From a virus, in the IMG/VR virus record IMGVR_UViG_3300027749_000060, positions 1 through 64,000 of that record: a DNA stretch of 64,000 nucleotides. One strand, written 5' to 3'. A model generated the notes under the pieces. The model was given only the letters and a program-made list of their open reading frames with translations, was not told the DNA's origin and made no database searches. The position numbers and the translations under genes are program-made. The number at the start of each line of letters is the position of its first letter. The stretch's first letter is position 1. Shown here in pieces: positions 2,787-48,625 of this stretch.

Positions 2787-5700
2787 TTAATACTCGCCAC
2801 CGTCAATTGTATCTGTATTAGTTAACACAGAATTTCCATTCTTTTTTATGTCTGTTGTTACTGATATATTACCTGCAGATAGTGTTCTAGTAGCAATTGC
2901 ATAGCTAAGGTATTGGTTATCTGTTATTAACCCAGATGCTCCTGCTATCAATACTCTATTCTCAATTAAATGTGCATCTTTAAACCCATCGGCAGTAACT
3001 GCGGCAGTGAATGTACCGGTGCCCTCTACCCTGAGCGGTCTTCCAATTGACCATGCATCGTGCCCGTAATCATAAAGTATTGTTGCAGTACCATCTATGC
3101 CTAAATTAAGAGTTAAGCCGCCATTGGCCGATTCGGCCGCTGTAGTTGAATTTTTACCTAATTCAATGTTTAAATCACCAACAGCAACAGTAGTAGAATT
3201 TACAATAGTTGTATTGCCGCGTACTGTTAAATTTCCACCTACTAATAAATCGTTTGTTGTTTCTAGTGTTGTAAATTTACCAGTAGACGGAGTGGTATTA
3301 CCAATTGGAGTATTATCTAATGCAAAAAGTGATACGTTACCGGCAACATTTAAATTGCCGCCAATTCCAACACCACCAGATACTACAAATGCACCTGTAT
3401 TTTTACTAGTTGATTCTGTTAGATTTGTAATAGTTACTTGGATATCGGTTGTGCCAGTTAACACACCCCTGCTGCCAACATATCCATGAAACCCTTGGCT
3501 ACCAGTATATCCAACTCCAGAAGCACCAATTGGGCCAATTGATCCTCTTGATCCTACATATCCTGTTGCGCCAGTAATTGATAATCCTTGACTACCTGTA
3601 TAACCAACCACGGTACTAGCAGACCCGGTGTATCCAATTCCTTGCGGGCCAGTTGAGCCGGTTGGGCCGGTTATACCCTTAGCGCCAGACAAATCTGTTA
3701 CATAAATGTAAGAACTACCATTCCATAAGTAAAGTATTGCATCTTCCGAGTTTTCAACATTGTTATCAACAATAGCAAATTGCCCTGCTGTAATCCCAGT
3801 AGGAGCAGTATCGGCAGTTAGTGCTGCTACAGAAGCATAAGATTTAGCAATAGTAAATCCTAAACCAGTATCGCCTTTACTACCAGTGTATCCGTATCCT
3901 GTTGCGCCAATTTGTCCGGTGGCTCCCATTATACCAATCATACCAGTAGCGCCTGTGATTGATACACCAGTAGCTCCTCTTGGGCCTGTAGGTCCTCTTT
4001 CGCCGGTAGCGCCAGTGGCTCCGCCTGGGTCGCCAGTTGGACCTGTTGGGCCTGTTGCACCAAATCCTGTTGCGCCTACCGATCCCGTATATCCAGAAAT
4101 GCCGAAGCCGGTTGCACCAATCGGTCCTGTTATGCCTTGTATGCCAAAGCCGGTTGCACCAATTTGGCCGGCTGGGCCAGTATCGCCTTGTACACCTTGA
4201 AATCCAGTTGCACCAATCTGTCCCGTTGCACCAATTGTTCCCTGCGTCCCTTGAATTCCAGTTGCACCACGGACTCCTGTTGCGCCATTAATTCCTTGTA
4301 ATCCAGTGGCACCTTGTAATCCAGTTGCACCAGTATCGCCTTGTACGCCTTGTACGCCTGTTGCACCAAATGCCCCAGTTGGACCAATTGTTCCCTGCGC
4401 ACCTTGTACTCCGGTAGCACCACGAGAACCAGTTGCCCCTGTTATTCCAATTCCAGTTGCACCAACTTGCCCAATAGCACCAGTATCGCCTTGTACGCCT
4501 TGTAGTCCAGTTGCACCAATTGTTCCTACACCAGTGGCACCTCTTGGACCCAATACACCCGTAGCGCCAACTGCACCGGCGTTGCCCGGCAACCCCTGTA
4601 GTCCAGTCGCGCCAAATTGCCCAATTGAGCCGGTATCGCCTTGTACGCCTTGTAACCCTGTTGCACCAAATTGTCCCGTTGCACCAATAGTACCAATTGG
4701 TCCTTGTACTCCTGTTGCTCCTGTTAATCCTGTTGCACCTTGAGTGCCACCTGCTCCGGTTAATCCCTGTGCGCCGTTAGTTCCTGCATCACCTTTGGCT
4801 CCTGTTAGTCCAGTTGCACCTTGAATTCCAGTTGCGCCTGCTATGCCTTGAATTCCAGTTGCACCAACTGCTCCATTGGCACCTCTTGCACCTGCTGCAC
4901 CTGCTGTACCAGTTGCTCCGATTGGGCCAGTATCGCCTTGTACGCCTTGCAATCCTGTTGCACCACGAGAACCAGTAGCTCCTGCAACACCAGTGGCTCC
5001 AAAACCAGTTGCTCCAGGGGAACCGGTGAGACCAGCAGCACCTGCTGTACCAGTTGCTCCTATTAATCCTTGCAGCCCAATTGGACCTGCAGGTCCCTGG
5101 GGCCCTGTTGCGCCCTGTATTCCATTGGTACCAGCTGGACCGCCTAATCCAGTGGCACCAATAGTTCCTGCACCAGTTGCACCAGTAACCCCTTGTGCGC
5201 CATTAGCACCCTTAGACCCAGTATATCCTGCTGCGCCCGGGGCTCCGGGTAAACCAAATCCAGTTGCACCCTTTGATCCAACATATCCCCTGGCACCAGC
5301 TAATCCGGCTGGCCCAGTTGCTCCTGTGTCCCCATTAGGTCCAGTGTCACCTTTTACGCCTTGAAATCCAGTTGCACCAATTTCTCCATATGGTATGCCA
5401 TTGGCATGATACAATTGGTCTGTATAAATTGATCCTGCGTATACATTACCAGCAATACCTGCGCCGCCTGCAACTACTAGCGCACCAGTAGTAGTGTTAG
5501 TACTTGCAGTTGTATTTGTTAAATTTACCGAACCAGCATCAATAATTCCAGGTGTTCCGGATATTACTCCTCCCAGACTAACAGAACCATTGGATATAAA
5601 TTTTAAGTGACCAGTTGCATTATCCCAAGCAATAAATGCAGAATTTTGTGAGCCAATAGCAGATTTAAAGTAATTAAATTTAAATCCAATATCGGCACCG

Positions 5701-10861: not shown

Positions 10862-13800
10862 TTATATTATAGGACCATTAATTATATTAACTTCAAGTTC
10901 GTATATGTAACTTATTGATCCAATTACATTTATATAAACACTTTTAGGTGGTCCCATTTGTCCAGTTTGGGTTAATAATGTATATGTAAAAGTATCCAAT
11001 CCTTCGTAGTCAGGAAATGGTACATATGCAAAGTTTCGTCTATCAACTGTTATTCTAACATATCCGTGCTGCGGTTGAGATAATACTATAGGTTCTGAAT
11101 ACTTACCAGGTCCTACTCGTTGCATAATATGTGTATTATACAATTTTAAATTATTAGTATCTGTTGCAGTTTTAACCACTGGGGTTGCAAGAGGTCCAGT
11201 GCTTTTAACAGGAATAGGAGAATTGCCAGCTGGTTGCGTCATCCAAGATACAGGAGCAGTGGGTGCTCCTTGTGCCCATCTACTATGAGCAAAAGTCTGT
11301 TTAAAAGTATCGTAACTTTGTATATTTTGTATAGGTATAACCAATGCGTTATCTGAAATATCTGCTACTGTATCTGAGATAATTGTAACTATTCCAGATA
11401 ATGGTTTACTAAAGACAATTGTGTTGTTACTTTTAAAATTATAAGTATCAAATTTTGTTTCATGATTATCTGTACTATATTTTGAATTTATTAACCTTGT
11501 ACCATTTATAGGTGGTACATTTTTTATCATGTCATAAAATGGTGCATTAATAGGTAAAACTGCTCCATTTGAATCTATTCTATTAGGACTTGGAGGATAT
11601 ATGTCAACTACAAAAGGTGTTCCGTTTTGAGCAATGTCAAAGTTTATTTCGCAATATGTATCGTACATATCGCATAGTTTTTCTTTGCCGTATTCGTCTA
11701 TATTTTTAAGATTAACGGCATTTCTAGTATTCCATATAGTCGATCCTGAGGTAGTTCTAATAGATGCTGCAACACCTTTTGCTACTATGTCCTGTGGGTT
11801 TTTAACTCCACTAGAATTCCATATTACATCATTATGATAATCTGTTATACTTGCTGCTAGTGCTGCCGAACTGCCAGTGGTATCTGCTATAATTTTAATT
11901 ATGTAGTCTCCCTGAAAGAGAAATTTTTCTACTGTAAATATATTAGTAAAATTAATTGTTTTCGAAGTTTGATTGGTTTCTACTACCAATTCAAAAGTAG
12001 CATTAAATTCGTTAGGGGCCAGATATAAACTTCCTATATCATCCACCGATAAATTAAATTTATATTTGCCAGAGTTGTATATAGTAACATACCATCTATA
12101 CTCGCCGGAGCCGTCCCATACTCCAAAACTATTAATTAATGTAGACCATTGCCCATTTATTGTTGTAGGTGCTGGGTAATATTCTGGTGCTTTGATTAAA
12201 CTATTTGCAGATTCTGCATAAATTTTTATGTCATACCATCCTGGATCTTCTATTGTATATGTAGTAGTTTCGACATTTTTATAATTTTCTACAGGTGAGC
12301 CGGTTGTGGCCATAATTTTTTTAAGATCAGGATCCGACCTAATTCCAATGTTTGATTTTAATTGTAAATTAGCAGAGGTGTCAGCTGACAGAGAAAATAC
12401 ATAGTCATCTGCCTTAGGAAAAAATACTTCCCATTCATAATATTTTTTTGACCAATTTAAATTAGTAACAGACTGATCAATTGAAAATGTGACATCGTTC
12501 ATCCCTTGCAATGAATCACCCACACCAAATACCAAAATAGAAGTACTAGTAAAAGATTCGGGCACTGTAAATAGTCCCGATTGTGTGTCGTGGTTGCGAC
12601 TAATATATGTAACATCTTGCAACAGGTCACTAATACTAGGTTCCGTTCCGTCAACAATGTCTACTCTAGGATGATAAAATTGCAATCGTGTTGCGCTGTC
12701 ATTGCAATAATACAAATAAGTTCTATGTATTCCTTGTGTGGAATTGAGTCCCCATTTTATATCACCGGTGCCGATGGTGCCGCCGTTGTTATCACCAACT
12801 TTTCCTGCTGTGGTATAATACCCAGAATCTGGATGTTTACCAGTTGATGTAGTTGTTGCAGGATATACATGCCCTACAAAAAGGTACCATTGATTTTGTG
12901 TTAATTGAGACGTTAATCTATAGTCCCAATAAGGATTAAGTTCTGCATCTCCAGTATCCATACGGCATGCACCGCCATTATTACCATACATACCTAAATA
13001 AAAATAACCCCCAGCGGCAGTAGAAGTGCGCTTAACCCATACAGAAAACCTATACATTTTAGTATTATCGATGTCAAACCACGGTGTATTCCACCCTCCG
13101 TCAGCCTGATTGTCAGACGTTGGTCTTGCCTCCCATACTACGTCAGTTTTAGACCATGGATTACTGCCAAGAACACGTTCATTTTCATTTACGTTTCCAT
13201 TATGAGTATAACCGGTTATTGAACCAGAGCCAACGTACCATTCGTTGTATTTTATAATTGATGTAGTATCTCTACCTGCATAATTATTATGGTATAATAC
13301 CCCTGCCATTGGGATGGAAGGAATTTCTGCTACATTCCATATCCAATAACCAATAGTATAATTAAATTCCACAGTAAATTCACTTGACCAATTTACAATA
13401 TCGCCATATTCAACTTTTCGTATATTGCTAAGTGATGTTTGTATTCCAAAATTTAAAAGATCAGTAGCCGATACATCGTACCCAACTAATATCATATCTT
13501 CAGTGGATGCTGCTCCAACATTTATTGTAAGATTTTTAAGTAACGGAACTACCCCTATGTCATAATAAATTGATTGTACAGCTCCTAACGCATTGGGTAA
13601 ATTCATATATGAAAAAATATCCCCTTGAGCTCTAGCTTCGTCCCATATCCTGATATCAAAAATATAAGCATACAGTTGATTAGCTGGAGTTGCATCACCT
13701 TCTTTATTACCCAATGTAACAGGGCTAGTACTAGGTTGGGCAGTCCTATTTAAATAGAGAGTTAAATTATTTTGTATTCTAGGTGTTCCGTTTACATATA

Positions 13801-30402: not shown

Positions 30403-31413
30403 TTAAGCGTTTGATATTTTGATGTTAACATCGGCTGCAAAGTACGGTTGATTGTCATATACTTTAGTACCGCTAGTACCATTTGCAGTCCATGCTACTG
30501 AACTATCACTTGCAAATTGATGACTAGCACCAGTACCACGAGTTACTCGTGCTCGATGATTTGATAACTTTGTAATGTAATATTGATTGCCAGCAGTGTC
30601 GGTTGCTGTGATAGAAGCTTCGCCGGCTGCATTTACAGCTGAATCTTTCAACTTGACAATACCAGTTCTTGTACCATCTGTTACTTTATAACGACGACCA
30701 GAAACTTGTCTAATTACATCAACTGCGGTTGCCGAACCACCAGTTAAGTATGCTGTCATAGTAATTGCATTCTCGTTTTGACCAACTACAGCCGATGATC
30801 CCATTACTGCATCACCAGTAACCGATTGGCTAAATGATACAGCCGCATCGGTTGGATCGGTATATCCAGAACCGTTGTTAATCATCAACACTGATTTGGC
30901 ACGATAACGCAATGTTAATGTTGCGCCAGTGGCTGTACTTGCTGAGCCGTCGGCGTGTGTTACTGTAGTTGCTTGTGCCCCAGTTGCTAAAGCACCCGAT
31001 GCATACAAGAATGTGCCACGGCTCAATGGTGTTACAGCAGTAACATCGTCGCCGCCGGTTCCACCAATTGTATCAACTGTAAAAGTTGCTGTGCCGGCGG
31101 AAGTAGTAACTGTTAGAATATCACCGGCTACGTATCCAGCCATTGTACCGCCAATGTCAGTTGCACTTTCAACTTCAGATGTAACGCTACCAGTTGCACG
31201 TACAGCACCTAGTGCTAACTTGTCCGGATCACTGAATGTAGTTGATGGTCGTACCGTATACGCACCCAGGGCAGTTAATGTTACACTAGCAATCCGATTA
31301 CCACCAAGACCGTCATCGCCTTGATTTGCAGAATTATGTGCGTTTGTACTTTCGGCACCATTAGCGCCGATGTTACGATTACCAAAATATTTTTTATTTA
31401 AAGGACGTCCCAT
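30403..31413 (-). CDS. Virion structural protein, probably abundant
   Basis: 336 aa Ala/Gly/Thr-rich, MGRPLNKKYFG start; own late promoter, structured leader, strong TAAGGAG RBS and own terminator. Confidence 0.75.
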   Translation of the reverse strand: MGRPLNKKYFGNRNIGANGAESTNAHNSANQGDDGLGGNRIASVTLTALGAYTVRPSTTFSDPDKLALGAVRATGSVTSEVESATDIGGTMAGYVAGDILTVTTSAGTATFTVDTIGGTGGDDVTAVTPLSRGTFLYASGALATGAQATTVTHADGSASTATGATLTLRYRAKSVLMINNGSGYTDPTDAAVSFSQSVTGDAVMGSSAVVGQNENAITMTAYLTGGSATAVDVIRQVSGRRYKVTDGTRTGIVKLKDSAVNAAGEASITATDTAGNQYYITKLSNHRARVTRGTGASHQFASDSSVAWTANGTSGTKVYDNQPYFAADVNIKISNA

Positions 31414-31508
31414 TTTATTTTCTCCTTAAGAATTTATGGCGTTCTATGCCATACGCGGTTGGATTTCCGCATAAAACTTGCCCTATGCAAGTCGTACTGT
31501 CTATTTAT
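31414..31508 (-). promoter_or_regulatory. Late promoter core (31502-31508) followed by a three-hairpin 5' leader
   Basis: Stems acttgc/gcaagt (31476-31492), tacgcgg/ccgcata (31452-31473, one G-U on the minus strand) and tatggc/gccata (31435-31453). Confidence 0.65.
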
Positions 31509-42674: not shown

Positions 42675-43523
42675 ATGGAAAATCAACGCAAAAACCCACT
42701 AGCTGGGCACTTTAGACAACCGGCTATTTACTTAACATTACCCAGCAAAGGTCGATGGTGGGGTGAAAATGCTCTAAATATGCCAGCAAACCAAGAAATA
42801 CCCATTTATCCAATGAGCACCAAAGATGAAATTATACTCAGAACACCAGACGCATTGCTAAATGGCCAGGGTATTATAGAAGTTATTCACAGTTGTTGCC
42901 CAAATATATTAGATGCATGGCAAATGCCTAGCATTGACGTAGATGCTGTGTTAATAGCAATACGCATTGCCACCTACGGCAATGACATGAATTTTGATAG
43001 TAAATGCACACATTGTGGTGAAGATAATACACACGGGGTAGATTTAAGTGAGCCATTGGCTAGTTTAAGATGTCCTAACTATGCCGAACCATTAGAACAT
43101 AAAGGCTTAAAAATAAAGTTTAAACCACAACATTATTTTACTGCTAATAAATCAAATGTTTTAGAGTTCCAAGAACAAAAGATATTAAATTTACTAGCAG
43201 CAGCAGACATGGATCCAGAAGATAAAGCAGTGCAAATAAAACAGGCAATGGATAAACTTTTTGATCAAGGCCTCAGGGCCTGTACGGACTGCACAGATCA
43301 TATAGAAATGGAAGACGGCCAGCAAGTACATAATACTGACTATATCTTTGAATTCTACACAAACGCTGAAAGCGGACTAATCCGCGAAATACAAGCTAAA
43401 GTACAAGAGTTTAGCAATCAAGCTAAACCTGATGGAATAGCACTAGCATGTCAGGAATGCCATAAACCATACGAGGTAGAACTAGCGTTCGATTACGCAA
43501 ATTTTTTCGGAAGAGGCTTTTAA
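42675..43523 (+). CDS. gp26: Baseplate hub/tail assembly chaperone (gp26-like)
   Basis: YLTLPSKG, PM..KDE, D.D..L.AIR....G, two CxxC pairs (CTHC, CQEC) and C-terminal NFF. Confidence 0.8.
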   Translation: MENQRKNPLAGHFRQPAIYLTLPSKGRWWGENALNMPANQEIPIYPMSTKDEIILRTPDALLNGQGIIEVIHSCCPNILDAWQMPSIDVDAVLIAIRIATYGNDMNFDSKCTHCGEDNTHGVDLSEPLASLRCPNYAEPLEHKGLKIKFKPQHYFTANKSNVLEFQEQKILNLLAAADMDPEDKAVQIKQAMDKLFDQGLRACTDCTDHIEMEDGQQVHNTDYIFEFYTNAESGLIREIQAKVQEFSNQAKPDGIALACQECHKPYEVELAFDYANFFGRGF

Positions 43524-43741
43524 CTTTAAACACTGACGCAGAGGTCATCAAGTTCTTAGAGAGATATGACCGAGAAGTAAAAGCCTTAAAAGAAGAAACA
43601 TTGCGTATGTGCTGGTATATGAGAGGAGGAGTATCTTATAATGAACTCATGGAAATGAGCAACATTGAAAGAACTATCATTGGGGATATTATTAAAAGCA
43701 ATTTAGAAACTACTAAAGAATCCAAATTGCCTTTCTTCTAA
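43499..43741 (+). CDS. Downstream -1 frame segment (gp51-like position), probably translated as a frameshift extension of the gp26-like gene
   Basis: Not in the ORF track. -1 frame open 43466-43741: KFFRKRLLTLNTDAEVIKFLERYDREVKALKEETLRMCWYMRGGVSYNELMEMSNIERTIIGDIIKSNLETTKESKLPFF*; slippery A AAT TTT TTC at the overlap. Confidence 0.7.
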   Translation, partial: KFFRKRLLTLNTDAEVIKFLERYDREVKALKEETLRMCWYMRGGVSYNELMEMSNIERTIIGDIIKSNLETTKESKLPFF

Positions 43742-43754
43742 TATTCTTTATCTA

Positions 43755-44200
43755 TTCGAGACTTGCTGTGCAAGTCTATTGCTATCGCTATCGCTCAGCA
43801 ATATTATTTCTTCTAATCTAAGAAACAATTCTAAATACTTTTAATTCGGATATATTATCTAGATGTAGATCACAATTCGGCCCAGCAGGCCAAAATTGTG
43901 ATCGAGACATTATCTGAGTGCCTTCAACACACTAACTATAAGAGATTGCTTGCTGGTGCAAACACGGAGGCGGTCATCCTGTACCCCCTACTCTAGATTC
44001 GATTATGACGGTACACTATACAATAACTAGTTAGCGCCATTGTTAGTGCTTGGGTTGTATATTTTTTACAGAGCCCAGATCATTTAATACCTTACGTTGG
44101 TATCTTACCGTACAGCTCCTAAGTCTGCGGGTGTTATTTCACACACACTCAATAGGGATCGAGGTACCTCGATCAAACGACGCTGCTATAATAATTTGCC
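43755..44200 (-). ncRNA. Candidate large structured non-coding RNA (class unknown)
   Basis: ~450 nt with no credible ORF, at least ten compatible helices, a long-range closing helix and a 9-bp pseudoknot; G-U pairs form only on the minus strand. Ends approximate. Confidence 0.6.
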
Positions 44201-44722
44201 TTAGCGGCTGGATTTACATAGTTGTTCTATTGATTCGGAATTTTTATTCCAGAATGATTCAAAGTCTTGGATGATCCATGTGCCATAATTAGGAGAGATA
44301 TACGTGGAGTAATTGGGATTTAGTGATAGACTTGGTGTCGGTTGACAGGCAATATAAGTGCCTTTGCGATTAAATTTCATGAGTAATATATTGAAATCGC
44401 CAGTGTTGGCCACTTCTAATAACTGCCCAATCCATTTTTCTAATATAGGTATTGTACCTTGATAAAGTTGATGGAATGGAAAATCAGCATAACTCTTTGC
44501 TTCCGCATTAAAATATGTCCAAGATTCCGGGGGAACAATATCTCCTTTGAAACTCTTAACTTGACTTGCATCAAGACTTGCTTTTCTAAAAGAATTTGTT
44601 CCGCCAATGTACGCTCCGCTGTGTGGTGCTCTAATAAAAGAGGCATTGTGGCGCTCAGATAGAAATTTGGCAACTACACGTTCCCAGGAATTTCCTTTAT
44701 TTTTGCTTTTTGATCCACTCAT
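44201..44722 (-). CDS. PD-(D/E)XK nuclease, Holliday-junction-resolvase-like
   Basis: SKNKGNSWER.VA..L, R.P.SGA, GDI, EAK motifs of Hjc-like phage resolvases; follows gp46. Confidence 0.8.
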   Translation of the reverse strand: MSGSKSKNKGNSWERVVAKFLSERHNASFIRAPHSGAYIGGTNSFRKASLDASQVKSFKGDIVPPESWTYFNAEAKSYADFPFHQLYQGTIPILEKWIGQLLEVANTGDFNILLMKFNRKGTYIACQPTPSLSLNPNYSTYISPNYGTWIIQDFESFWNKNSESIEQLCKSSR

Positions 44723-44878: not shown

Positions 44879-46645
44879 CTATGAGTCTATATCAGTCCCA
44901 TACGTGGTATAACCGTTGCTTTTGGTGACCCTTAATATATTTTCAACCCTGGCAACTAACTCATCTCGATGACTAACTAACCAAACACTCTTCTTGCCAT
45001 CCCTGCTGAGTTTTTTAAGTATAGCCAATGAACTTTCCATTCCGCTGGAATCTAAACCTGAGTCAACTAATTCGTCGACAAATAACAAATTGACTTTCTG
45101 ATATAGGCTTTCCCATACATCACGGAATGCCCAACTTAAACTTAATATAAGTCTATTGCGCTCACCTCGGCTGAGATTGTCAAAGTCTAAATCTCTACCT
45201 AGCTCTGTGATACTGACTGTGAGATCATTTTGAAACTCAACTTGATGTGGCAGTCCAATCTTTTCTAAGTAGTAACTCAGTCTGGTATTTAAATAACTTA
45301 AATTTTGATCAATTATTTTTTTGCGAATAAAACTGTCTTTGCTGGTTAACAACTTGAGTAAGAATTCTTCATGATCCTTCATCTTAGTCAACTGGTTAAT
45401 ATTATCGTAGCTAACTTCTTCTAATGCAGTTTTTGTCATTTCTTCAATTTGATCATCGTATGGATCAATTTCAAGTTTTTTCTGTTCTATTTGCTGCAAC
45501 AGATTTGCTAATGTAGCTCTATGCTCAACGGCGTCTGACTCGCGGTCGTAAAACACATTAGGATGTGTACCTAATGCACCCAAGTCGTTTAATTCCTGTG
45601 TATTTTCTATGTATTGAGTATTAGTAGCTAGCGACTGTAGTGCAGCCTCTTGCAATGCTTTCTTTTTGCTGTCTAACAATTTTACTTGTTTATCATCGTG
45701 GAATGATTGCCCGCAACTATGACATGTATGATTTTCTAAACTGGCTATTTCAGTTTTAAGTTGATCAATAAGTTTAATTTCGCGAGTTTCATCTAGTTCA
45801 CAGCGTTTAATTAAACTGTTAAGAGTTCTAATCTTTGTTGATTTTTCGTTGTAGGCTGTTAATGCACGATGTGCAGCTAGCTCTGCCTCAATGTCAATTT
45901 GATTCAATTGATCATATGCGCTTTGTAGTTGGTCGCAATCTGTATTGTATTTGTTAACCCAAAGAGTTTGTCTGCGTCGTAGGGCTTGAATTTGTTCTTC
46001 TATGCGTTTATTTGCATCAATGACAGCTCTAATGCGGAATTCGTCCTGCTGTATATCGTCTTTGGTCTGTTTAATTCTATCTTTTAGTACTTCTGCTTTT
46101 TCACTTAGCAGGGTAATACCCATTAGCTGCTCAATGATTTCTCGTTGATCGCTGGCCCGTAGACTTAAAAAGGGCTCTGTATAGGTGTTTAATGCAACAA
46201 TATGCTTAAACATACTGTGGCTCATGCACAATAGTCGTTCAATGTCCTGCTGTGTTTCTCTACTATCGCCCTGACTTTCATCTACAATCTGTTGCTCAAC
46301 ATCAGCAACATAAAATTTCATCACGTTAGGTTTACGTCCGCGTTCAACTCTATATTCAACGCCGTCTTTTTCAAAATCAATAGTAACCATCATGCCTTTG
46401 GCATTAGTTCTATTAATCAGATTGTCTTTTTTGATATTGGTTAGTGCATTGCCATACAAAGCATAGCTAACTATATTCAATAATGCGCTTTTTCCAGTGC
46501 CGTTGCGAGCACCGCTATCGTCGCCGCCTAAGTCGAGGTTCTCGCCCAGTATCAGTGTTAGGTCATTACGATCTAAATTGACACTCTGGGTAACATTGCC
46601 AATTGACAAAAAGTTTTTTGCCGTAACAGATTTTATTTTAAGCAT
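44879..46645 (-). CDS. gp46: Recombination endonuclease ATPase subunit (gp46/Rad50/SbcC-like)
   Basis: KNFLSIGN, Walker A NGTGKS, zinc hook CHSC, signature LSRGE, Walker B LFVDE, H-loop VSH. Confidence 0.95.
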   Translation of the reverse strand: MLKIKSVTAKNFLSIGNVTQSVNLDRNDLTLILGENLDLGGDDSGARNGTGKSALLNIVSYALYGNALTNIKKDNLINRTNAKGMMVTIDFEKDGVEYRVERGRKPNVMKFYVADVEQQIVDESQGDSRETQQDIERLLCMSHSMFKHIVALNTYTEPFLSLRASDQREIIEQLMGITLLSEKAEVLKDRIKQTKDDIQQDEFRIRAVIDANKRIEEQIQALRRRQTLWVNKYNTDCDQLQSAYDQLNQIDIEAELAAHRALTAYNEKSTKIRTLNSLIKRCELDETREIKLIDQLKTEIASLENHTCHSCGQSFHDDKQVKLLDSKKKALQEAALQSLATNTQYIENTQELNDLGALGTHPNVFYDRESDAVEHRATLANLLQQIEQKKLEIDPYDDQIEEMTKTALEEVSYDNINQLTKMKDHEEFLLKLLTSKDSFIRKKIIDQNLSYLNTRLSYYLEKIGLPHQVEFQNDLTVSITELGRDLDFDNLSRGERNRLILSLSWAFRDVWESLYQKVNLLFVDELVDSGLDSSGMESSLAILKKLSRDGKKSVWLVSHRDELVARVENILRVTKSNGYTTYGTDIDS

Positions 46646-47661
46646 TAGAGAGTACGATAGATTTCAAGCAACAAGTTAGTATTATAGTTATCGCTGGTAA
46701 TACCTGTCAATTGATTAGACACAATTTGATCCACGCTTTGAAATGATATGTTGCCTTGTGCAACCATGCCTTCGAGATCCACATTTGATTGTGGAATTAA
46801 TTTAATCTCTCTAAGATGATGACTATTAATAAACGTTTCTTTAATAAAACTAGCTTCTTCGTAGCTAATGTCGATGTCCAAGTTGACCCTAGCATGCATA
46901 TTCTTACGTAACAACCTATCGGAGTCATTTAAGATACTGCTGAGATTGTATACTCTATACACGGGTTGATCAGGCCATGCATGATATACAGGCTCTTGTC
47001 CCCATTCAAGTATCATTAGTCCGCGTTCGTCGTCACCGGCATCGGCATAGTTATGCGGAAAACAATTGCCAATGTAAGTAATATTCTTTTTAGTTTGACG
47101 TTTATGAAAATGCCCAGTAAACACATGATCAAAGTGATTAAAGTCTTCTCTATGCACAGTGCCGTGATCGGGCATTTCTACCATAGCATTCATCAGGTAA
47201 CCTGGCAATTCAAAATGCCCAAACATATACCTGGCAGATAGCTTAGGTATACGTTTATGGTCGTCGGCAACAAGCCAAGGAGCAATAACTACATCGCCCT
47301 CAATGAGCCAATCGTTGCAAATGACTACATTCTTTAAATGTTTAGCCCACTCAACACTTTGTACATCGCGCTTGTCTCTATAATACAAATCATGATTGCC
47401 GGGTATAAAAAACACCCTATCAAAATTTGCATTTAAATGTTCTAATGCTTGTAGACTATAATTAAGAGTAACAATATTAATGCTAGCTCTATTATTATGC
47501 CAATCACCAAGAAACATGGCTGTTTCGCAGCCCTCTTCCTTGGCCTTAGCAGTAGCCCACTTTACAAAATTTAAACAGTCATCGTTGTGTTGGCTGCTGT
47601 TTGATTTTAATCCAAAGTGGATATCAGTAAAGACAGCAGCTTTTTTAAAAAGATTACTCAT
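46645..47661 (-). CDS. gp47: Recombination endonuclease nuclease subunit (gp47/Mre11/SbcD-like)
   Basis: DIHFG, LGD, GNHD, GHFE, GHFH metallophosphoesterase motifs; stop overlaps the gp46 start. Confidence 0.95.
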   Translation of the reverse strand: MSNLFKKAAVFTDIHFGLKSNSSQHNDDCLNFVKWATAKAKEEGCETAMFLGDWHNNRASINIVTLNYSLQALEHLNANFDRVFFIPGNHDLYYRDKRDVQSVEWAKHLKNVVICNDWLIEGDVVIAPWLVADDHKRIPKLSARYMFGHFELPGYLMNAMVEMPDHGTVHREDFNHFDHVFTGHFHKRQTKKNITYIGNCFPHNYADAGDDERGLMILEWGQEPVYHAWPDQPVYRVYNLSSILNDSDRLLRKNMHARVNLDIDISYEEASFIKETFINSHHLREIKLIPQSNVDLEGMVAQGNISFQSVDQIVSNQLTGITSDNYNTNLLLEIYRTL

Positions 47662-47708: not shown

Positions 47709-48590
47709 CTAATCGTGGTCGCCATCGCTACCACCTGTATAACCAGATGACATACCTTGTCTGGTATAACTTGGATTAAAGTTATTCATTTCTAAAATAT
47801 CGTCGCGTAAGTTCTGATTACGTTTTTCAATATTCAACACACGAGTAAAGCTATTAGTGATAGCGGCAGTATAATACGCAAAAGGGTTCTGCGATTTTGA
47901 CTCATCAAATTGGAGTCCAATTTGGCTGAGTTGTAGTAAGGCTTGGCTTCGCATTTCGTCATTGTAGGTATATCCTCTCCAGTTTGATCTTGTTGCATAT
48001 CTCTCGCATAATTTCATAAACATCAGGGCTAGCTTTTTAGTCATAGACCCATGGTCTCTTGACCATTCTCCGTCATCTATATTGCCCTTCCAGTGGCTTT
48101 TGCCTACGCAATAGCTAGCACCGTTTACATCAATTTTATAATGTTGGAACGGAGGGAAATTGCATTTAGTGTATTTAATTATTGCAGCTGGTACTTTATA
48201 GTCGGCGTCGTCATCGTATTCGGTATGAGCAGCGGCTTCTTCGTCTGCCGCGTCTTGACTCTTTTTAGTAGCAGCTTCGTTTATTGGTACATGAGCCCAA
48301 GTCATTACTCGAAAAATTACATCTGTAGTAGGAATTTCTTCAGTTGGAAGTAAAAATTCGTCTAGTTTACGTTTTTCGCCCTGGGCAGCAGCAGCTTCAA
48401 GTTGAAGTTTTGCTAATCGCTCTGCTCGATTTTCCTGTGCTTGCCGTATGTTATCTGTGGTGATCTGTAATAAATCATGGATAATCATATCATAGTCGGC
48501 GTAGTCTGGTAATGTAAAAGTACAGTAAGTACTTTTGCTACGGTGTATCTCTTTTAAGATATCTTTATTATTTAGGTAATTATGTTTAAT
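47709..48590 (-). CDS. gp55: Late-transcription sigma factor (gp55-like)
   Basis: NYLNNKD, NWRGYTY.DEM, FD..KS.NPFAYYT....NSF......EK motifs; next to gp47/gp46 as in T4-like phages. Start placed at ATT 48590 (track gives TTG 48608). Confidence 0.85.
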   Translation of the reverse strand: MKHNYLNNKDILKEIHRSKSTYCTFTLPDYADYDMIIHDLLQITTDNIRQAQENRAERLAKLQLEAAAAQGEKRKLDEFLLPTEEIPTTDVIFRVMTWAHVPINEAATKKSQDAADEEAAAHTEYDDDADYKVPAAIIKYTKCNFPPFQHYKIDVNGASYCVGKSHWKGNIDDGEWSRDHGSMTKKLALMFMKLCERYATRSNWRGYTYNDEMRSQALLQLSQIGLQFDESKSQNPFAYYTAAITNSFTRVLNIEKRNQNLRDDILEMNNFNPSYTRQGMSSGYTGGSDGDHD

Positions 48591-48625
48591 TTTTATTCTC
48601 CTTAGCAAATTACTGCATTGTTTTT

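Follow-up and report, generated by a model that had tools for sequence, protein, structure and literature searches.

The closest described relative of the RNA studied here is Polynucleobacter-1 (RF01718), an orphan motif whose 2010 description was based on 16 sequences (Weinberg et al. 2010, PMC2864571, Additional file 1). In the entry given to the motif there, it is reported to lie behind genes of a family that has a homologue in a cyanophage, in fresh-water and estuary metagenomes and one Polynucleobacter genome, and it is listed for no purified phage (PMC2864571). Our analysis concerns a locus of the same kind in a stretch of 64,000 nucleotides (nt), hereafter the window, which comprises positions 1 to 64,000 of the IMG/VR record IMGVR_UViG_3300027749_000060. 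The window is part of a 109-kb record from an uncultured T4-like lake phage, and its segment 43852-44200 (minus strand) is the gene for a large structured non-coding RNA. An earlier inspection of the letters without database searches (the sequence-only reading) had proposed at 43905-44200 an ornate, pseudoknotted RNA, either of a new class or distantly akin to ROOL or GOLLD. The first part of that proposal holds, as this is a genuine ornate and pseudoknotted non-coding RNA, but the class is not wholly new, since the family overlaps the orphan motif RF01718.

GOLLD and ROOL are likewise large, highly structured and phage-associated, but the window RNA is smaller, has another architecture, does not lie beside transfer RNA (tRNA) genes and leaves their Rfam models unmatched, so the suggested kinship was not upheld. 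The transfer-messenger RNA (tmRNA) and RNase P RNA belong to a similar size class and also contain several pseudoknots around conserved single strands, whereas the window RNA has neither tRNA-like ends nor a recognisable P4-type core. ARAGORN found nothing in the window or in the 109-kb record, and no tRNA genes lie near the RNA. For a group I or II intron there is no Rfam match, and the convergent genes leave no 3' exon. The lack of tRNA, tmRNA, RNase P and intron hallmarks that had been noted by eye was therefore borne out by Rfam and ARAGORN. At gathering as well as permissive thresholds, Rfam gave for the region only chance-level microRNA and small nucleolar RNA matches, and the window copy matches no family.

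Relatives were collected in two ways. Through the nuclease protein encoded next to the RNA we obtained 80 IMG/VR loci, and a 15-base pattern from the most conserved stretch yielded a second set of at least 120 loci. With a hidden Markov model (HMM) built on the spacer, full-length homologues were detected in 58 of the 80 nuclease-fetched loci and in 108 of the 120 pattern-fetched loci listed, with more in existence. There are 101 distinct full-length copies with a mean identity of about 56%, and the spacer aligns end to end even where the nuclease protein is only about 50% identical. More than 150 contigs of uncultured T4-like phages carry the conserved RNA. The window copy, the single one in its record, matches the family profile over positions 4-433 of 436 (nhmmer E 7e-100), and we regard it as almost certain that the element is a structured RNA gene of this family, which we call the twin-box or extended Polynucleobacter-1 family. 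The copies show no coding potential: the median is only 6 open codons ahead of the boxes described below, and the spacings are not multiples of three.

Folding of the single sequence is only suggestive. The minus strand reaches a minimum free energy of -82.5 kcal/mol, mildly better than its shuffled controls (z -1.93, 8 of 200 shuffles as good), while the plus strand folds no better than its own (z -0.15); it is therefore the comparative evidence that decides. The MAFFT alignments used for this evidence were fitted to no structure and cover the core (74 sequences) and the 5' domain (39 sequences), with shuffles and slid partners as controls. Standard pairs in the core amount to 84.4%, against 66.5% in shuffles and 41-55% with slid partners; 25 of the 29 pairs have changes on both sides, and covariation is 0.543 against 0.229, with none of 500 shuffles as high. 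The corresponding values for the 5' domain are 74.4% against 64.1% (shuffled) and 30-47% (slid), with a covariation of 0.343 against 0.164 and again 0 of 500 shuffles as high. RNAalifold, run on the MAFFT core alignment, recovered just two helices.

MAFFT misaligns the helices that bear insertions and deletions (H2, H4 and H9), and these called for a register-free duplex test, in which the energy of each sequence's own two strands is compared with that of strands swapped among sequences. Of the 16 pairings compared in this test, most bind much more strongly as cognate strands than as swapped ones, z being about -4 to -23 for 14 of them and -5 to -23 for 13. The exceptions are H4 (z -2.7) and the ACGGUA/UACCGU pairing of 44106-44111 with 44008-44013 (z -0.4). 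The latter, which the sequence-only reading had listed among its helices, is short and mostly invariant and received no support. All other stretches that the reading named are likewise present on the minus strand where it placed them, nearly all of its helices within 43905-44200 are real, with heavy compensatory change in the relatives, and the covariation in related phages that it had named as a check, pseudoknot included, was found on the unfitted alignments. It missed the pseudoknot PKc, helices H1 and H3, the twin boxes and the 3' continuation.

The fold of the RNA, which is roughly 350-450 bases long, comprises about 13 helices; PKb and PKc are covarying pseudoknots, and PKa is a conserved long-range pairing. 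The most conserved part is a double-pseudoknot core around the invariant GGUAC...ACCGCCUC stretch, present in the window at 43966-44013; as for every part named below, the coordinates refer to the minus strand. PKc, an H-type pseudoknot in this core, joins 44005-44009 to 43973-43977 in the loop of H10, is 94% paired with double changes in 4 of 5 pairs (z -15.7), and covaries through five pair sets; in one member, letters that are otherwise invariant have changed on both sides. H10 itself (GGGGG/CCUCC, 43966-43988) also covaries. It is 92% paired, its middle G.U pair alternates with A-U, its duplex z is -5.2, and its loop carries the most conserved stretch of the family together with the 3' strand of PKc. 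H9 (AGAG/CUCU, 43990-43995 with 43939-43946, z -14.7) encloses H10 and the variable hairpin H11 (43948-43963). The long irregular hairpin H8 (44013-44049, z -20) presents the loop 44028-44035, which pairs with 43930-43938 as PKb. This pseudoknot, described by the sequence-only reading as a 9-bp loop pairing, is among the best-supported elements, with z -20 and both-side changes in 7 of 7 pairs on the unfitted alignment.

Upstream of the core, the RNA opens with a conserved UAAGGCA-like start that takes in the nuclease stop codon (44197-44203) and is retained after either type of nuclease gene. H1 (44182-44187 with 44112-44116) closes the 5' domain, being 84.5% paired with both-side changes in 4 of 5 pairs (z -5.7). 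H3 helps to close it through CCUA at 44153-44156 and UAGG at 44118-44121, which are 100% paired with both-side changes in 4 of 4 pairs. Between them lies H2, the perfect 18-nt palindromic hairpin at 44157-44174 (z -11.5), whose covariation is visible. H3, spanning 44118-44156, encloses the 5' strand of PKa and hairpin H4 (44127-44148), a GUGU/ACAC stem with a conserved U.C mismatch. In PKa, the long-range UGAGUG/CACUCA pairing of 44146-44152 with 43914-43920, the two sides are nearly invariant, and a U-A pair alternates with U.G (z -3.4). Two further hairpins follow: H6 (AUACC/GGUAU, 44086-44104), with a conserved loop of AACNUAAGG type, is 78.7% paired and has four double-change pairs (z -9.4), and H7 (UGGG/CCCA, 44049-44078) combines a highly conserved A-rich loop with an inner 3-bp helix (89% and 99% paired, z -11.5).

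Beyond the core, the borders proposed at first cut off the 3' part, namely hairpin H13, the second box and the distal hairpins. Motif 1 (43907-43920) comprises the 3' strand of PKa and box 1, and the long hairpin H13 (43868-43903, z -13.4) separates it from motif 2 (43852-43864), which holds box 2. A variable A/U-rich linker (43803-43851) then leads to H14 (43778-43802, z -21), with a conserved loop of tandem AGCGAW words, and to H15 (43759-43777, z -23). The 3' boundary of the RNA probably lies at 43759. H14 and H15 remain with the RNA where gp26, a baseplate hub gene of the convergent operon downstream, is kilobases away, and also in bacterial copies with a co-oriented downstream gene; they could in addition act as an opposite-strand terminator of the gp26 operon.

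Many pairs switch G.U with A-U or G-C, for example in columns 85/103, 27/41 and 79/159. This alternation works on the minus strand only, which identifies the minus strand as the RNA strand and confirms the argument that the sequence-only reading had drawn from its G-U pairs.

Comparison with RF01718 indicates that the family is a modular RNA, in which a common body of 300 nt is joined to alternative 5' domains. The common body consists of H8, PKb, PKc, H9, H10, the invariant core, the twin boxes and H13-H15. The window copy represents the type 1 form found in uncultured T4-like aquatic phages, with H1-H7 as its 5' domain; it gave no match to RF01718 (a model of 141 nt with a gathering score of 37 bits) at gathering, at E<=10 in 43600-44400, or in the 109-kb record. 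In about half of its relatives (type 2), the first 140 nt score 93-120 bits against the same model. The RF01718 match in type 2 loci overlaps the 5' end of the HMM match and extends upstream of it, and the model ends where the part in common with the window RNA starts. As the 3' two-thirds are shared and the 5' third differs, the window holds a variant with a different 5' domain in place of Polynucleobacter-1. RF01718 RNAs thus occupy the same genomic niche as the window RNA and have its whole 3' two-thirds in common, whereas the Rfam model covers the 5' domain only, without the 300-nt shared part, the pseudoknots or the twin boxes. These parts are likewise absent from the description of the motif in the 2010 supplement (PMC2864571). 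The gene family named in that description is GOS11034, which resembles gene 218 of P-SSM2. Most relatives of the window RNA follow a GIY-YIG nuclease gene, a core gene of cultured cyanophages, while the window RNA follows a PD-(D/E)XK gene. The orphan 141-nt Rfam motif is therefore one optional 5' domain of a much larger, multi-pseudoknot RNA. The twin-box family as a whole is large and mostly uncatalogued, and is kept by hundreds of uncultured T4-like phages of lakes and estuaries and by some small-genome Burkholderiales; a 2023 catalogue of 10,006 viral candidate RNAs may include the motif.

The form carried by the small-genome Burkholderiales bacteria is the third one. Of 151 genomes sampled from the order to which the Roseateles record belongs, 3 have RF01718 matches, and all three measure 1.7-1.9 Mb. 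By eye, two bacterial loci (L325 and L326) contain the whole body, including the twin boxes and the distal hairpins. The neighbours of the first (L325, G053:C4:71077-74217) are a DUF6641 gene, a 224-aa protein without a recognised family and a tyrosine-integrase fragment, and the bacterial RNA may be island cargo or an integration target. A search of the core pattern against GTDB contigs listed at least 120 matches, all of them chance by nhmmer, and is uninformative about bacteria. In GenBank phages, neither blastn with the whole RNA of four family members nor the most conserved 47-50 nt at E<=10 gave a match, and no such RNA adjoins the nuclease genes of the cultured relatives Melnitz, C48C1, V45v66 and ACP17. 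The bacterial copies offer a culturable host; none of the cultured phages searched has a copy.

The feature that gives the family its name is a pair of 7-nt words, which flank the hairpin 43868-43903 at a distance of 48-58 nt from each other. Box 1 follows ACUC (43909-43915) and box 2 follows AUCU (43854-43860). In 98 of the 101 copies the two are identical letter for letter, as they are in the window. They nevertheless vary from copy to copy: at two purine positions all four combinations occur, matched between the boxes, in 37, 28, 24 and 9 copies (3 are mixed), and the agreement extends to rare box words with differences at two to four positions. Yet other words, matched in the same way, stand in the two bacterial copies. 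By mutual information over the 101 copies, two non-Watson-Crick column pairs formed in this way are among the strongest signals, equal to Watson-Crick helices. On a tree built without the box columns, the two positions have undergone at least 22/21 and at least 14/14 changes, and joint change is seen in 12 of 13 independent lineage pairs (none in the opposite sense) for the first and in 10 of 10 for the second, while the two positions inside one box are mutually uncorrelated. Covariation of this kind, same letter for same letter in the same register, is a rare constraint and a concrete experimental handle. As a separate observation, the bacterial box words AGCGAAA or GGCGAAA equal the loop word of H14 or are one letter off (L325 1190-1230; L326 870-900), and the boxes may be connected with the H14 loop.

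Coding interpretations of the boxes were tried and set aside. In 100 of 101 copies each box can be read as a sense codon with UAA or UGA after it, one member having no stop, yet mini-ORF (open reading frame) and stop-codon readings fail since no reading frame runs through the boxes. The take-off and landing codons of T4 gene 60 are likewise two matching short words around a hairpin; unlike in that translational bypass, no frame leads into the boxes of the RNA, their spacing to starts is variable, the landing word itself stands before a stop, and one member is stopless.

The locus in which the RNA lies has a fixed order: gp47, gp46, a small nuclease gene of the GIY-YIG or PD-(D/E)XK type, the RNA on the same strand, and a convergent gp26 operon. 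Among loci not chosen through the nuclease, the order gp46, nuclease, RNA, convergent small ORF and gp26 is found in essentially every adequately flanked one, and the RNA is always co-oriented with the gp47-gp46-nuclease operon. In the window, a gp55-like late sigma gene (47709-48608), gp47 (46645-47661), gp46 (44879-46645) and a 173-aa PD-(D/E)XK nuclease gene (44201-44722; PF24608, E 8e-21; phrog_244, 'RusA-like resolvase') precede the RNA on the minus strand. Facing them on the plus strand are gp26 (42675-43523) and, at the end of its operon, a 46-aa ORF (43601-43741) with tblastn matches in most loci. The 459-nt gap between the nuclease gene and the 46-aa ORF contains no credible ORF, and the element of the sequence-only reading fills its upper two-thirds. 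The RNA begins at the nuclease stop codon (44200), with no terminator between the two.

In the set of loci not chosen through the nuclease, the slot before the RNA holds GIY-YIG (PF19835, often labelled 'NAD synthetase' in GenBank phages) in about 90% and PD-(D/E)XK (PF24608, T5 D14-like) in about 10%. This one slot between gp46 and the RNA has thus seen non-orthologous replacement, and the two proteins look like alternative structure-specific nucleases of the recombination module. Both are core genes widespread in cultured phages without the RNA. One clade carries an extra gene of about 335-342 aa, which separates the RNA from the PD-(D/E)XK gene (L013, L019-L023, L043 and L063, about 3500-4520); its product has no Pfam or PHROG match.

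The simplest reading of this arrangement is an RNA at the end of a recombination-gene operon, transcribed with the operon or from a conserved start. RNAs this large and this well conserved have generally turned out to be ribozymes, cores of ribonucleoproteins or architectures that assemble themselves. With somewhat better than even confidence we take the window RNA to be stable and to act in trans, perhaps as a ribozyme or as the core of a ribonucleoprotein, with the boxes as recognition elements. Read-through from the operon, or initiation at the conserved UAAGGCA, would produce it, and it would then be kept as a stable fold acting in trans, alone or with a protein. The working parts would be the invariant double-pseudoknot core and the two 7-nt boxes around H13.

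As for how the boxes might work, identity without a fixed sequence points to recognition by base pairing or to a copying step, and not to recognition by a protein. They would accordingly pair with one common nucleic-acid partner, or with each other in a two-fold symmetric or parallel fashion. In the latter version, parallel or two-fold symmetric 7-mers would explain why A/A, G/G, U/U and C/C change together in register; in the former, both boxes would be read by one nucleic acid, for example when the RNA re-pairs with DNA of its own locus. That the twin boxes form a sequence-addressed device new for any RNA, by homo-base pairing or through one shared partner, is a tentative proposal with perhaps a minority chance of being correct. 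If it is, the family would count, through its boxes, as a new functional class among the RNAs of phages and islands and not as a passive scaffold.

Several observations weigh against this picture of a stable, box-directed RNA acting in trans. The proposal itself is drawn from complexity and conservation only. In lake metatranscriptome runs, only short contigs of low depth lie over parts of the RNA, the remaining parts carrying no information, and the libraries may contain DNA; one contig is a 123-nt adapter-flanked fragment (43986-44108) and another spans the nuclease stop codon, and either could be DNA. In H14, A.C cells exceed G.U cells (33 against 8), on account of which the RNA may end near 43852, the distal hairpins belonging to an opposite-strand terminator. 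No third column covarying with the boxes was found among the 101 copies, and no Watson-Crick complement of the box recurs consistently within the RNA or 400 nt, the sole recurrent partner being the 4-nt invariant AUCU before box 2. A search over the 3-10 kb of the loci likewise found no box partner: complements are weakly enriched there (69 against 55, p about 0.035) but at no constant position, and a 9-nt box complement in a gene at window 11330-11450 is at chance level.

The operon context could also be explained by a cis-acting 3' untranslated region, which would protect or process the 3' end of the gp47-gp46-nuclease mRNA or tune nuclease expression. The start of the RNA at the upstream stop codon without a terminator, its constant co-orientation with the operon, and the library contig that crosses the stop codon, possibly from DNA, all agree with such a function. 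A fold of about 350-450 nt with its three long-range pairings and over 40 nearly invariant unpaired bases, however, goes far beyond known 3' stabilisers. The sequence is moreover kept behind two unrelated genes and behind the inserted 335-aa gene, and the bacterial copies stand in a different gene context. We consider a purely cis-acting role unlikely.

An explanation at the DNA level, to which we give a similarly low probability, starts from the boxes. Being identical but free to vary is the rule for the crossover cores of site-specific recombination and for RNA-DNA re-pairing between repeats, and the boxes behave in this way. They could be crossover or cleavage sites, or the hairpins and the A/T-rich stretch could form an origin or recombination hotspot; in a variant, the transcript would pair back on its own DNA and prime replication. 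The neighbouring recombination genes, the integrase fragment near one bacterial copy and the A.C excess of H14 would fit as well. This explanation is difficult to reconcile with the core helices and both pseudoknots, in which many of the pairs are G.U and would turn into A.C in DNA or on the opposite strand, and pseudoknots have no meaning for a DNA duplex. Furthermore, the phage loci contain no recombinase gene, and no member lacks the segment between the boxes.

Even less probable is that the RNA serves as partner or guide of the adjacent small nuclease, with the boxes or another segment directing cleavage, although a small stand-alone nuclease directly precedes the RNA in nearly every adequately flanked phage locus. 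GIY-YIG and PD-(D/E)XK are unrelated folds and would need different RNA-binding surfaces, and both occur as core genes in cultured phages that lack the RNA. The box letters do not covary with GIY-YIG residues, nor with those of the small ORF, the values lying below the permutation null; the signal for PD-(D/E)XK residues is explained by clade structure, and one gp26 column is slightly above its null (0.51 against a 95% null of 0.41). Beside the bacterial copy L325, none of the 4 neighbouring ORFs was assigned to a nuclease family, 2 of them having no family match at all. A private nuclease-RNA complex or guide is unlikely because of the two unrelated folds, the absence of residue-box covariation, the 335-aa insertion and this bacterial copy.

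An equally improbable rival is a homo-oligomeric assembly like ROOL, GOLLD or OLE, with the palindromic motif 2 (AUCU and the first four box letters, self-complementary over 8 nt if G.U is allowed) and the twin boxes as intermolecular contacts: the RNA is suitably large, ornate and phage-borne, but it has no sequence or Rfam relation to these three and no tRNA genes nearby, and an 8-nt self-complementarity is weak evidence.

The surroundings of the RNA gave some further observations. The 46-aa ORF that follows gp26 is kept in well over 100 related loci and is thus a real gene. In 24 loci (L012, L022, L039, L050 and others) the nearest convergent gene beyond the RNA is not this ORF but one for a 107-aa DUF6614 protein, so that further genes have entered the interval between the RNA and the gp26 operon. 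Elsewhere in the window, Rfam freshwater-2 (RF02980) has a full-length match of 74 bits at 31411-31492 (minus strand), in the leader of the gene at 30403-31413. This match is probably the three-hairpin leader that the sequence-only reading had seen, and freshwater-2 is also present in a related locus (L156).
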